Below are positions 37,601-43,600 of a stretch of DNA of 64,000 nt, piece after piece. Position 1 is the stretch's first letter. Each line of letters starts with the position of its first letter. This DNA comes from Escherichia coli (GTDB lineage: Bacteria > Pseudomonadota > Gammaproteobacteria > Enterobacterales > Enterobacteriaceae): NCBI RefSeq assembly GCF_041248615.1, contig NZ_CP158426.1; one strand, 5' to 3'. A program made the position numbers.

Positions 37601-40600
37601 ACGCCAGCAACTTTCACCGGACCAACGTTCGGCAGGAAAATATTACCTTTGGGATCAACCTGTAACGCACCATCAAAGGTGAACGCACCCCACAAGCGAA
37701 CCTGAATGCTATCACCCGGATTCAGAATATAGTCAGGGTTGAATCCTACCGTCGCACCGCTATCTGCGCTGGTGCCGTTGAAAAGTTGAGCACCAAACAT
37801 ACGGCTCATTACCACCGGCGGTGCGGGCGGCGGGGTATTGTCGAAGCCGCTCATGTTTTGCGTATCCGACTGTTGCCCGTTCAGAATACCGGTAAGCGGC
37901 GCGGCTCCTGTAAGGTTTGGGTCGGCGTTAATATCAATGGCCGCGCTGGCCTGCGCCGCGTGACAGGCGGCAATCAGTAAAATTGATTTAAATAATTTCA
38001 TCACAAACTCATTCAGCGACAGCGTTAGTCTCGGTGATCTTCAATAACAGCCAGCAACAGTTTCAGGGTGCCGAATAGCAGGCAGCACACCAGTAACCAG
38101 CAGGCGATCAAATAAGGGATATTTGGAAAAGACGATTCCTGCGGCAACTGTGGCGAACTGATCACTGACAGCACCTTGAGCTTACGAGCCGCTTCTACAC
38201 GGGTCTTTTCAATGGAGGTCAGGGTCAGTTTGTACAGCTCGGTGTTGAACTCTACTTTTGATTTGATTTCTTCAAAATCCACCGCCATACGGTTTAGCTT
38301 GTCACCCTGCGGCGCTGTGATTTTGCTTTTTTCTTCGTCAATTTGTGCCTGCAATGACTGAATCGCATTACGCGCACTCACAACTTGCGGGGCGTCTTCA
38401 CGCAGATACGTCAGCAAGTTCCGCAGGTCCGCTTCCATCTGGATCTTCTGGCCCATCAGCGTATTGACTAACGTGCTCGCCGCCTGTGCCTGTGCCTGTG
38501 GATCCAGAACGTTGTTGTTGTCCTGATAAGAGAGCAATTCCGCTTTGCTGGCGTCCAGACGCTGGCGTGCCTTTTCCATCTCCGTTTCTGCAAAGGCAAG
38601 CTGGTCACGCGCGATGCGATGTGACATCTCATTGATAAAGCGCTCTGACTCTTTCAGCACGGTCTGGTTAAACTTAAGCGCAAACTCCGGGCTAAAGCCC
38701 TGCGTCTGAATATTCAGTAATCCGGTTTTATCGTCATACGAGACGTTGATACGGTCCTTGTAGTACTTCAGGAAGCCTTCTGCAGTTTCATCCTTGCTAA
38801 GATGATTAAGAAAATCGAGCCCGCTGTGGCTAAACGCTTCACGAAAATTTAGTTGCTTATCCAGTGCCGCCAGCATATCCGGCGAGTTGATGTACTCTTT
38901 CAGATACAACGCATCTTCTGCGGAACTGGGGTTAGAGGCACCCAGAAGCAGACCAAAATTCAGGCTGCCGCTGTTTAAATCATCCGAGCGTTTAATGGCG
39001 ACTTTCGACTCGCTCATATAGCGAGGCTGGCTGAAGATAGCCAGATAGATCAGCAGCACCGCCATCGGTGCCAGAATGATGATTTTCGCCAGGTGTTTTT
39101 GGATATCTGCCAGTGAGATGGCAGACAGACGAGCACGCATCCAGGATACGGCAGACTTCACTTTTATCAACATGTAACGATTATCAAAGTTTCAGTGGGG
39201 CGCAAACTCAATGAGAGACTAACCTCTCGCACCCCGTTGCTTAATTAGTCGAAAATGCGCACAAGGCCAGTGACTTTATTTGCCTTGTTGGTCACCAATA
39301 ACGTTGAGACGCGGTGCTTTTGCATTTTTTCTTCCGCTTCAATGATCATGGTGTCTTCCGGTAGCGTCAGCGGTTCACGTGTCATCATCTGCGCAGCCGT
39401 GGCGGATGTCAGAGAATCCTCTTTTTCCATAAAGCGACGCAGGTCACCGTCGGTGATAATGCCCGCTAGCCCACCTTCTGCGTCTTCTACCATCACCATT
39501 CCCTGGCATCCGCTGGTGATACGTTGAATCACGGTTTTAAATGACGCATCCAGCTGTACCGCAGGAACATCATGCTGCATGACATCAGCAACGCGGGTCA
39601 GCAGGCGACGACCTAATGAACCGCCCGGGTGATAGCGCGCAAAATCATTCGGCATAAATTTGCGTTGGTGGATCATGGCAATCGCCAGCGCATCGCCGAT
39701 CGCCATCGTCAGCGTGGTAGACGTTGTTGGTGCAAGATTATTCGGGCAGGTTTCATTCGCCATGTGGAGTTCCAGCACGGCATCAGCATTTTTCGCCAGC
39801 GTGGAATTTCCATTATTGGTAATGGCGATAATTCGGTTGCCGAAATTTTTCAGTGAAGGAACTAGCTTGAGGATTTCATCCGTTTCACCGCTGGCAGAAA
39901 TAAGGATCAGAAGATCGTAAGGCGTAATCATGCCCAGATCGCCATGGAAAGCTTCTGCAGGATGAATAAAGAAACTAGGCGTACCCGTAGAGGCCAGCGT
40001 CGCTGACATTTTACGACCGACATGCCCTGATTTACCCATTCCCGAAAGAATAACGTGCCCTTTACAGTTCATTATCAAATTAAGGACACGCTGGTACTGC
40101 CCGGAATCCAGTTGTTTAGACAAGTTTTGTAATGCTGCGCCTTGTTCTGCCAGAGTCTGGCGAACAGAGGTAATTAGATATGGATCGATAGTACTGCTCT
40201 GGTCATCAGGTAAATGTCTTTCAGACATATCAGCTCCTTTGCACGGAAATAATGCCACAGTCACAACAAACCCGAACCCACTATAATTTATTTATGCTAA
40301 ATCAATGGGTTGTAACAAAATTTTTAATGAATATAAAACCATGGTCAGTCCATGCTTATATGCAGGACTTATCACCTTCTTATTAAGTCGCAATGTCTCA
40401 TGGAGGTGCGAAGATGCTGCAATATTACAGGCGAGAAGGGGAACCAAATTTTGCCCACCTATTTAACACACCCCTACATTATGAACAAGGAATTTAGGAT
40501 TTTTATCATTTATTAAAATGTTTCCTACTTGACTATTAAACCAAAAAACAATTTATCAATTGATTATTTCCTTGTAAAAAAAGAACGTATGACCATGTTA

Positions 40601-43600
40601 TTAATAAATAAAACACGTAAATAATGGTGATGTTGTTTTGTGATTAACTATTTAAGAGTGGCATAATAAACAAGTTGACAATTTCTATGTAAAGAAGAAG
40701 AAAATAATAAAATTTTAGCGGTGACTATTGAATGATATGATAGTTGTGGTGTTGATTATTTCTGGTAATGAATGCGGAATTAAATCTGGCCGGATTGTAT
40801 TTTTGCTATATCTATTTTTCAGGAGATTATTATTAAATATAAAAATAACAATGGTGATTATCTCCGGTTGACCTGGAGTCACGTATGCCAGCGAGTGCTT
40901 TCTTCCGGGCCTTCCTTCACTTCAGAGAAAAAGAGGCAATCATCAGGCTCTTTTTGAGTCATATGCGCCGATAATCAACTGTCTTGAACGTAAAAATTAT
41001 GGAGCAACATGATGCTACGATTCATTTCACTCTTCGTTCTTTCTGAGCATTGCGTTCAGGATGGTCAGCAATTTACGCATACTGTCAACCAGCGCCACTT
41101 TTTTGGTTTTTCCGGCTGCTGACAGATGCATGTAAAATGCCTTTATCACCGGATTAAACCAGGTTACCACAAGCGCTGCCATGTGCAGGGCTGCTCTTGC
41201 CTCCGTACGCGCACTGGCGTCGTTCGGCCAGCAGATATGTGTGGGATAACAGGGATGTTATGTGAACTGAACTGTGTTTTGTTAGCGGGGGGATGTTTAT
41301 TGATGATTCGGGAGTGTTTAAGACCTGATGGCGTTATGCTCCCAAGTTTATTTTATATAAAGATCCAAAAGCAAAAACCCGCCTTGTGGGCGGGTTCTTT
41401 AGAATAGTGGTGCCGGAATCGGAATCGAAAATTTCTTTTATCATATTGATATTAATATAATTTGTTTGGTTTGATTAAAAATGTACCCTCAATTATACCC
41501 GCAGTCCCTTTTGATATCGAAAGGGAATCACACTCGGGATCAGGCTGAGAGCACAGAAGGAAAGTACCTGGCTATTATATCGTTAATTCTGTCAATCAGT
41601 TCCAGCCTTTTGAAAGTGATGTGTGCAGATCCCTTCTTAAAGTATTTAATGATGAACATCTCGTCTTCATAGCGCTCTTTACCCTGAACGGACTGGATGT
41701 GACCATCCAGACGAATAGTGATGTTTTCCCGGTTGTCGGGGATCGGTTTGCCGCTGAACAGATGTAGCATTCTTTCCAGGTCGACGAGTCGGTCAGTCTG
41801 TTGCCCGGTGATAAGATGAAACCCCCACCGGTCCCACCTCACCAGGTTGTTGACGATAATTTTACTGCCAAATTTGCAGGGGCAATTGGTTTTGTAATTC
41901 CAGCTCAGTCCCCTGAAGACGTTGATCACCCCTCGCTCAAACACCTCATCCTTATTCTGGTGTAGTTGTTCAAATGTGATCAGAATGTTCGCTTCACTGA
42001 TTTCCGGAAAATTATCGTACTCCAGTGACCGGTACCATGTATCACGGGCCTGTGCATCCATTAAGGAAAGCATCCCTGAACGTTGCATCAGGTCACGCCA
42101 GATTTCGCGATCGAGATTGCGTGTGATGGCTTTCATTGCGGTTTCCGGTTTCTCCATCAGCCAGCAGCCGCAGCGAAAATCCTGTTTCATGGCCCAGCCC
42201 GGGGCGGCTTTACCGCCAATACTTTCTGTCATTGCTGATATTTCAGCCAGTTGCCGGATAAGTGTGTCGATTTGCAGCAGTGTACTCTTTCGTACAGCCA
42301 GAATGTGGCGGATATTGGTTGAGCAGATAACGTCCGTATGCCCGGTGACCACTTCCGGACGGGAGATTGTGATGTCTGACATTATCGGTTTCCCTTTTGG
42401 TTTATAAACGAAAACGCCAGCCCTGTTCAGGCTGACGTCAGTGGAATGAAGTATGGTGAGTGATATTTACCGGTTCTGGTGCAGAAGCTGCAGGTGACGA
42501 AGAGTACGGACATCCTCCCGGGCCTGTTCGATACAGGGCAACAGTGCTGCCGAATCCGTTTTATCCTCATCGTTGTCAAAGATAATTCCCGATTCGCAGT
42601 CGATATTGTCCTGCAGCCACGCAATGAGGATATCCAGCGCTGTTTCAGTGGTTAATGGCATCACGCTCTGTATCACTGTATTGTCTTCCGGCAACTGATG
42701 AGGGCTGGCAGAAGTCGCCGGTGTTTCGGTAGCGTCATGTTCATCCACCACGCGGAGTGAATAACCGTTTTCAGCGACTTTGTTAATCAGTTCAGCGAGC
42801 TTAATACCATCGACGTCAACGACAATGCGCCCCATGTTCAGCGCCTGCGCATTAATGCTGTCGGCTTCCAGCGTCAGGGCCAGTTTCATTGTTTCGCCTC
42901 CGGATGCTTACCCAGAGTAATGTTATTTACTGTTCGGTAATTGTCGCGGGTCATCAGGCCGGTCGCCCTGCGAGCCCGGAGGATATCGATGCTGTTTATT
43001 AACTGAGAGCGGGTACAGGCGCTGAATCCCGGCTGGTCGGTACGCACCAGCGCGTATTTTTCCACGAGAAAGTTCACCGCATCACACAGTGAAATGCCTG
43101 CCTCAATATGCTGCTCAATCACACGTTCATCAGCGAACGGTGTGTCATTCAGTGTGAGGCCGTAATGCTGGTCCAGCAGTCGGGTGAGCAGTGTATGCCA
43201 GATGGTGACGGGAGACGGGCAGCACGATGCCTCCCGTACGTGTGTGTCAGGTAATGTTTTCATCTTAAGTTCTCTGTAACTGGTAGTGCTAAAGGTGAGA
43301 TATTCGGGGTTATGAGGTGGTTGCGGGTGCCAGTGTCGGATAAACAGCCATATAAACGTAACCACAGGAGCCGAGGGTGTCGGCTTCACAGGCCAGCCCC
43401 TTCGCATACAGTGTCACGGTATGCTGATGGCGGGGATTCAGTTCACCGCTGGTGAGCATGAGCTCCAGTTGTTTCATCAGCAGCGGAAAGGCCTGGTCCA
43501 GGTGGTACGCATCTGCATCGCTGAACAGGCCTCTGATACCGGCGCGGTCGGCAAGGTAATGCAACCGGTTACCCTCCTGCACCAGACGTGCCCCGAAACA

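Follow-up and report, generated by a model that had tools for sequence, protein, structure and literature searches.

The 1,311 bp that separate kpsF, the first gene of region 1 of the kps capsule locus, from the DUF4942 gene of the neighbouring genomic island in a 64,000-nucleotide stretch of Escherichia coli DNA (contig NZ_CP158426.1 of assembly GCF_041248615.1; henceforth referred to as the window) are very probably a mosaic of three layers: the flank of the capsule locus itself, with the region 1 promoter (PR1) and an inert relic of an IS110-family insertion sequence (IS); core chromosome, with the terminator of the tRNA-Phe gene pheV and a partial copy of its 3′ end (pheV′); and the terminal arm of the island. 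On sequence comparison, the true junction between capsule locus and island is pheV′ (41408-41429), the predicted right attachment-site (attR) repeat of a pheV-integrated island, and the DNA to its left is not island. A first reading of the window (henceforth referred to as the preliminary description) had set the limits of the interval at 40229 and 41539, where the open reading frame (ORF) list, the RefSeq annotation and the Pfam matches also place them, and had taken IS debris as the mark of the junction. The junction does lie inside the interval, but comparison with strains ECA64 and AVS0542 indicates that it is marked by pheV′ and the native pheV terminator and not by the relic.

The junction between the capsule locus and the island

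The pheV′ repeat differs from the last 23 nt of pheV by one mismatch and one deletion, and in alignments to ECA64 and K-12 it is followed by the native downstream sequence of pheV. The junction thus carries the 3′ end of the target tRNA gene as a direct repeat, and colinearity between strains breaks at that repeat. In BLAST searches, for a class of thousands of genomes, K-12 included, the match was confined to query positions 1133-1201 (window 41361-41429) and lay under or beside tRNA-Phe, and colinearity with K-12 stops at 41361. Within this core segment lies the predicted intrinsic terminator of pheV, a GC-rich hairpin with a U-tract (41399-41373, minus strand; an 11-bp stem and a UUUUUGCUUUU tail in the terminator scan), whose RNA folds at -18.8 kcal/mol (z = -3.85), a value that none of 200 shuffled sequences reached. 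Strain ECA64 lacks the island and has an intact pheV at this place, with the spacer, the IS110 relic and kpsF directly behind it as in the window, whereas AVS0542 has a different island terminus, with an AbiE-type toxin-antitoxin pair, that diverges right after pheV′. The two strains and the window diverge at 41429/41430, and BLAST matches end at query 1201/1202. Because ECA64 has the relic and kpsF without an island, and because different island ends diverge at this one point, we assign the relic to the flank of the capsule locus and not to the island. On the island side, the 110-bp arm also occurs, next to different cargo, in the avian pathogenic E. coli (APEC) strain E12053 and in BAP1, a B-strain derivative, window 41408-41539 matches by itself at other chromosomal sites, and 25 of the 110 sites of the arm vary among 3 strains.

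We determined how often these layers occur together in 5,426 complete E. coli genomes. The relic and the adjoining spacer (40976-41360, at least 80% coverage) were found in 1,613 genomes, kpsF and PR1 (39900-40700) in 1,697, and the whole interval, contiguous, in 1,480; because of the first two counts we regard the relic as almost fixed in the flank of group 2 kps loci. The spacer (41210-41360) occurs in E. coli genomes only together with the relic, and several complete E. coli genomes hold a stretch 100% identical to the interval. Exact 21-mers from the IS-end junction and from inside the relic gave 0 matches in 100,044 species-representative genomes, of which perhaps none carries the locus. 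On the other side of the capsule segment, colinearity with K-12 is lost near the end of gspM/yghD, at ~24814, and the segment, which spans ~24814-41360, stands in place of ~105 bp of K-12 sequence.

We infer that the IS inserted first and that its left four-fifths would have been lost in a later deletion or recombination, through which the remainder came to adjoin DNA ~150 bp from the pheV terminator. Fixation of the relic would date from early in the group 2 kps lineage of E. coli, with neutral drift since then. The first layer, from kpsF to 41360, is the left flank of the capsule locus, composed of the PR1 promoter, its 5′ untranslated region (UTR), AT-rich DNA and the 234-bp relic. The second (41361-41429) is core-chromosome DNA, composed of the native pheV terminator and of pheV′ as the attR scar of a tRNA-targeting island that integrated into pheV, and the third (41430-41539) the terminal arm of that island. 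The pheV terminator would now halt read-through transcription from the island before PR1, and the relic would play no part in capsule regulation.

We considered whether the relic could instead be the scar of the event that placed kps beside pheV, with a deletion or recombination endpoint inside the IS joining the capsule segment to the pheV-proximal chromosome. We hold this to be unlikely, though credible. The truncated side of the IS does face pheV, ~150 bp from the point at which K-12 colinearity restarts, the relic is present in ~95% as many genomes as kpsF and PR1 by the counts given above, and the capsule segment replaces a short piece of K-12 sequence. However, 151 bp without known origin (41210-41360) intervene, so the truncation point of the IS is not itself the junction with the core, and no intermediate that lacks the relic or holds a full-length IS was found, two scans of species-representative genomes having given no matches. 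That the debris is a scar of the arrival of the island, marks the junction and possibly mediated the joining of cargo to the capsule locus is very unlikely: the relic lies only ~200 bp from the junction, and island borders commonly hold IS elements, but ECA64 has it with identical flanks beside an intact pheV and no island, it also occurs beside islands with unrelated termini (AVS0542), and the core DNA of 41361-41429 separates it from the island.

Some points weigh against the three-layer mosaic as we describe it. No tRNA gene was found in the window by ARAGORN, and the island extends past position 64000, so the left attachment-site (attL) partner of pheV′ would lie outside the window. The overlap between the 1,613 relic-positive and the 1,697 kpsF-positive genomes is inferred from the counts, and the PR1 landmarks used below were taken by coordinate transfer from studies of K5 and UTI89. 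An ATG-initiated ORF of 51 codons (41182-41027) persists in the relic and could, as far as its sequence tells, be expressed. Finally, the left truncation point probably lies at about 41209-41229 and is placed to a resolution of only ~20 bp: a gap-rich DNA alignment, which we judged unconvincing, hints at ~20 further degenerate IS bases, to ~41229, and the first ~20 bases of the spacer may be further decayed IS sequence.

Identity and decay of the IS110 relic

The preliminary description had reported, between kpsF and the first island gene, frameshifted fragments resembling the C-terminus of an IS110-type transposase, and had suggested a span of 40950-41320. Such a C-terminus is indeed present on the upstream side of the region 1 promoter, although the supported span is narrower (40976-41209) and consists of a single in-frame piece with two in-frame stops. 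The relic matches the NCBIfam profile NF033542 (IS110 family RNA-guided transposase) over positions 281-342 of 343, that is the final 62 (E = 5e-8). With an intact 321-amino-acid IS110 protein as query, tblastn gave a single in-frame high-scoring segment pair (residues 252-321 against 41209-41000; 76% identity, E = 3e-26) and detected no further IS110 piece, whether in another frame or at another place in the window, and nothing N-terminal of residue 252. By blastn, the relic is 85% identical to an intact plasmid relative over 207 bp (41182-40976), and its DNA identity to intact and decayed IS110 copies is 85-87% across ~210-220 bp. Its damage amounts to a 5′ truncation and two nonsense substitutions, WNESNHYIAP* being changed to *NES*HHVAP* (asterisks, stop codons).

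We take window position 40976 to be the authentic right terminus of the element because a four-way alignment of the window with two plasmid copies and one decayed chromosomal copy shows ...TTACGTTCAAGACAGTTG in all four and divergence from there on; homology is lost at this same base in three independent relatives (plasmids L002 and L004; chromosome L007). Significant family homology and an authentic element end together identify the piece as a derived IS110 relic. The decayed chromosomal copy, ~86% identical to the relic, is found in E. coli CH427 (2522-3385 of L007) and in ~660 other genomes; in many E. coli chromosomes it adjoins a gene for a 'putative zinc ribbon protein', and in CH427 it is truncated by IS100. 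The best plasmid match (98.6%), 'plasmid 4' of K. oxytoca MSB1_10D (NZ_LR890315.1), was rejected as an independent IS copy because it is the same E. coli kps locus: this 29-kb record holds E. coli kpsFED, the IS110 relic and a CP4-like island end, and is probably mis-binned or contaminant E. coli chromosomal DNA.

The relic aligns with residues 259-313 of IS621, the structurally characterised relative of these IS110-group elements. Everything before residue 252 of the 321-amino-acid relative is missing, and with it the RuvC/DEDD domain, the coiled coil, most of the Tnp domain including the catalytic serine, and the left end. The N-terminal RuvC-like DEDD domain (PF01548) was absent from the whole window by tblastn with the intact relative, and only the tail end of the C-terminal Tnp domain (PF02371) is left, the aligned IS621 residues falling after S241. 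The catalytic residues of IS621 are the DEDD set D11/E60/D102/D105 and the serine S241 (PMC11208158). Because it lies outside all of these positions and has no left end, the relic is predicted to be inert and cannot transpose or recombine on its own. The intact relatives of 321-322 amino acids are located on enterobacterial plasmids and have a conserved non-coding left end of ~155 nt before the ORF and a right end of ~21 nt after it; this agrees with the layout published for the IS110 group, a long left end that contains the bridge RNA and a short right end (PMC11208160). No homologue of the ~155-nt left end was found in the interval. An Rfam scan of the full-length relative L002 returned no bridge-RNA family, though Rfam may hold no bridge-RNA model.

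Both stop codons of the relic are common to five of five strains, non-synonymous changes equal or exceed synonymous ones (2:0, 2:2, 4:1 and 4:1), and site diversity (3.0%) falls within the range of the flanking segments (1.1-5.4%). Because of these three observations we regard the relic as drifting under neutral decay. We considered whether it could nevertheless have been co-opted, either through the 51-codon ORF or as DNA that serves the regulation of PR1, for instance by limiting the spread of H-NS through its higher GC content or by offering a distal site to a regulator. The relic is retained almost universally in kps-positive genomes, sits between two AT-rich blocks and has the same orientation as kpsF, but co-option is highly improbable in view of the substitutions, which are mostly non-synonymous, and of a diversity equal to that of the flanks. 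Moreover, no Shine-Dalgarno-like sequence was seen on direct reading before the ATG at 41182, and published minimal PR1 constructs function without the relic (PMC5738388). The preliminary description had placed the promoter against the mobile-element remnants; by coordinate transfer, the IS end at 40976 lies ~523 bp from the PR1-1 start (~40453) and ~300 bp past the outermost published footprint (-224, ~40677). Natural strains also tolerate an IS21-family insertion between the relic and PR1: in AVS0542, ISEc10 (istA/istB; 1657-3908 of its record) lies at the equivalent of window 40783, ~330 bp upstream of the PR1-1 start, and K100 strains are reported to have the same arrangement (PMC12488582).

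It is extremely improbable that the lone right end of the relic could be recognised in trans by the bridge-RNA-guided recombinases of intact relatives, as a pseudo-donor or a target half-site; were it so, the pheV-kps border would be a programmable recombination hotspot contributing to the exchange or rearrangement of capsule loci. The chance that the IS resemblance is a coincidental similarity in a non-coding region is negligible, being refuted by the NCBIfam, tblastn and blastn results above, even though the Pfam profile Transposase_20 taken alone (positions 60-86 of 87) scores below its threshold (15.9 against 21.3 bits, E = 0.017).

PR1, base composition and neighbouring features

The features of the interval and its two neighbouring genes are listed in Table 1. 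Published work places PR1-1 225 bp upstream of kpsF, PR1-2 at +132, PR1-3 at +181 and a site for integration host factor (IHF) at +140 (PMC8960920; PMC5738388), and H-NS/SlyA footprints at -224 to -79 (H-NS I/II, SlyA) and at +1 to +32 (PMC8960920). The transfer of these coordinates is validated by the IHF site, because the published sequence TTACAACCCATTG matches the minus strand exactly at 40303-40315. The window thus holds an IHF site and, by coordinates only, tandem start sites within ~225 bp of kpsF. The base composition upstream of PR1-1 (26% GC) is consistent with H-NS/SlyA binding and thermoregulation. Among 4 strains, one of 225 sites varies in the PR1 5′ UTR and 12 of 224 in 40454-40677, the most variable part of the capsule flank. 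Two 11-mers (TGACTATTAAA/TGACTATTGAA and TTGATTATTTC) occur at 40530-40570 and again at 40722-40762 with an identical spacing of 192 bp; the first copy overlaps the published H-NS II/SlyA footprint (-121 to -79), and the other copy, at about -270 to -310, may represent a degenerate duplicate of that site.

Table 1. Features between kpsF and the island, with the two neighbouring genes (positions in the window)
Feature	Position	Strand	Description
kpsF	39245-40228	minus	First gene of kps region 1 (ORF list)
PR1 5′ UTR	40229-40453	minus	Transferred start sites PR1-1 ~40453, PR1-2 ~40322, PR1-3 ~40273; IHF 40303-40315
PR1 upstream region	40454-40677	minus	Transferred H-NS I/II and SlyA footprints (-224 to -79); 26% GC
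AT-rich DNA	40678-40880		30% GC; degenerate second copy of the 40530-40570 motif pair; no Pfam matches in ORFs
Old insertion-site flank of the IS right end	40881-40975		47% GC; short hairpin; independent IS110 copies lose homology at 40975/40976
IS110-family relic	40976-41209	minus	Right non-coding end of 24 bases (decayed stop codon included) and last 70 codons, with two in-frame stops
Capsule-locus-specific spacer	41210-41360		Between the truncated IS and core-genome DNA; sole Pfam match sub-threshold (E = 0.02)
Native pheV-downstream DNA	41361-41407	minus	Includes the predicted pheV rho-independent terminator; 94% identical to K-12 beside pheV
pheV′, predicted attR repeat	41408-41429	minus	22-nt copy of the tRNA-Phe 3′ end (TTCGATTCCGATTCCGGCACCA)
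Island terminal non-coding arm	41430-41539		31% GC; ~75-85% conserved at the ends of related islands
DUF4942 gene	41540-42382	minus	Last gene of CP4-like island module (Pfam PF13708, E = 1.2e-65; RefSeq annotation)

The interval had been described as AT-rich, which holds on average (37.6% GC against 49.4% for the whole window; 8.9% of 1311-bp windows are equally low) but not throughout. GC content is 38% in 40229-40453, 26% (0.263) in 40454-40677, 30% in 40678-40880, 44-49% in 40881-41429 and 31% in 41430-41539; AT-richness is thus patchy and limited to 40229-40880 and 41430-41539, and the IS110 fragment itself, within the 44-49% block, is not AT-rich.

Just outside the right end of the IS, 12 bp (AAGAGCCTATGG) that are present in four other kps-positive strains are deleted in the window strain at 40928/40929, which takes out one arm of a 9-bp inverted repeat (AAAGAGCCT...AGGCTCTTT). 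By the ORF list and Pfam, the interval contains no intact gene, and the sole RefSeq feature annotated in it is a pseudogene at 41027-41209 ('IS110 family transposase, incomplete, missing N-terminus'). A Pfam scan of the ten other ORFs of at least 30 amino acids gave only a sub-threshold DUF6485 match (E = 0.02) and no second coding remnant. An Rfam scan of 39000-43000 at E <= 1 gave no match above the gathering score of any family; the two sub-threshold matches, Pseudomonas P9 (23.6 bits against 43) and Trp leader (22.3 against 41), are both centred on the pheV terminator hairpin and were set aside as chance. The promoter scan returned 7 sigma-70-like matches, against 5.3 ± 2.5 expected from shuffles, and hence no enrichment, and no outward promoter at the IS right end. 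One sigma-70-like match lies in the island arm (41520 to 41492, minus strand; TCGATA-17-TATAAT, 10/12) and points toward pheV′ and the pheV terminator.

In a genome 100% identical to the interval, RefSeq names the kpsF product 'KpsF/GutQ family sugar-phosphate isomerase'. Farther into the island (46331-51839), an IS21-type istA/istB pair (49295-50836 and 48534-49283) lies between large minus-strand ORFs, which may derive from a single island gene split by this IS.

Significance and comparison with known systems

The relic was already known from the RefSeq annotation and pheV′ from published work, and the present result is a correction of detail concerning ordinary debris; searches of the literature for kpsF with IS110, and for pheV with kps and IS110, found nothing relevant. 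The corrected annotation makes pheV′ the limit between pheV island and capsule locus and assigns the IS110 fragment to the group 2 kps flank, of which it is an old, inert and nearly fixed part, instead of reading it as a trace of the island. Because core-chromosome DNA separates kps from the island genes, this bears on studies in which kps and the island genes beside it are taken to have been acquired together, for example those on the linkage of toxin-antitoxin systems and capsule. As a lineage marker for the group 2 capsule locus of E. coli, the relic is also convenient.

Compared with the IS110-group elements of Enterobacteriaceae (pCFSAN004179G, WP_000056792.1; pKPN-262, WP_042922302.1), the last 70 codons of the relic retain 76% protein and 85% DNA identity, the right end stops at the same nucleotide and the final 62 NCBIfam positions are matched. 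In contrast to the intact elements, only ~20% of the ~1.15-kb length is left, with two nonsense codons, and the two bases after the right end are 'CT' in three relatives and 'AT' in the window. In CFT073, a 'transposase' ORF, c3684, has been reported upstream of kps region 1 (PMC12488582); it occupies the same place as the relic, between the last genes of the island and kpsF, and is very probably the same relic, although the CFT073 island ends in an AbiE-like toxin-antitoxin pair where the window has the DUF4942 gene.

With respect to the kps PR1 regulatory region (Simpson 1996; Cieslewicz and Vimr 1996; Jia 2017; Aldawood and Roberts 2022), the window has the identical IHF site, a 5′ UTR that hardly varies and AT-rich upstream DNA, in keeping with the H-NS/SlyA footprints; the relic lies outside all mapped elements, and the window adds nothing new on PR1. 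The pheV′ repeat has its counterparts at the borders of pheV pathogenicity islands (PAIs) next to kps, for example PAI V of strain 536, PAI-pheV of CFT073 and the island of the K15 strain F8316/41 (PMC7387560), in which a 22-nt truncated copy of the pheV 3′ end likewise stands between cargo and capsule cluster. The cargo is likewise a yeeU/yeeV-type CP4-like module, and the gsp genes likewise lie on the far side of kps. Nothing substantive distinguishes the window from these islands: its copy of the repeat is one mismatch and one deletion from the gene, and island termini vary between strains.

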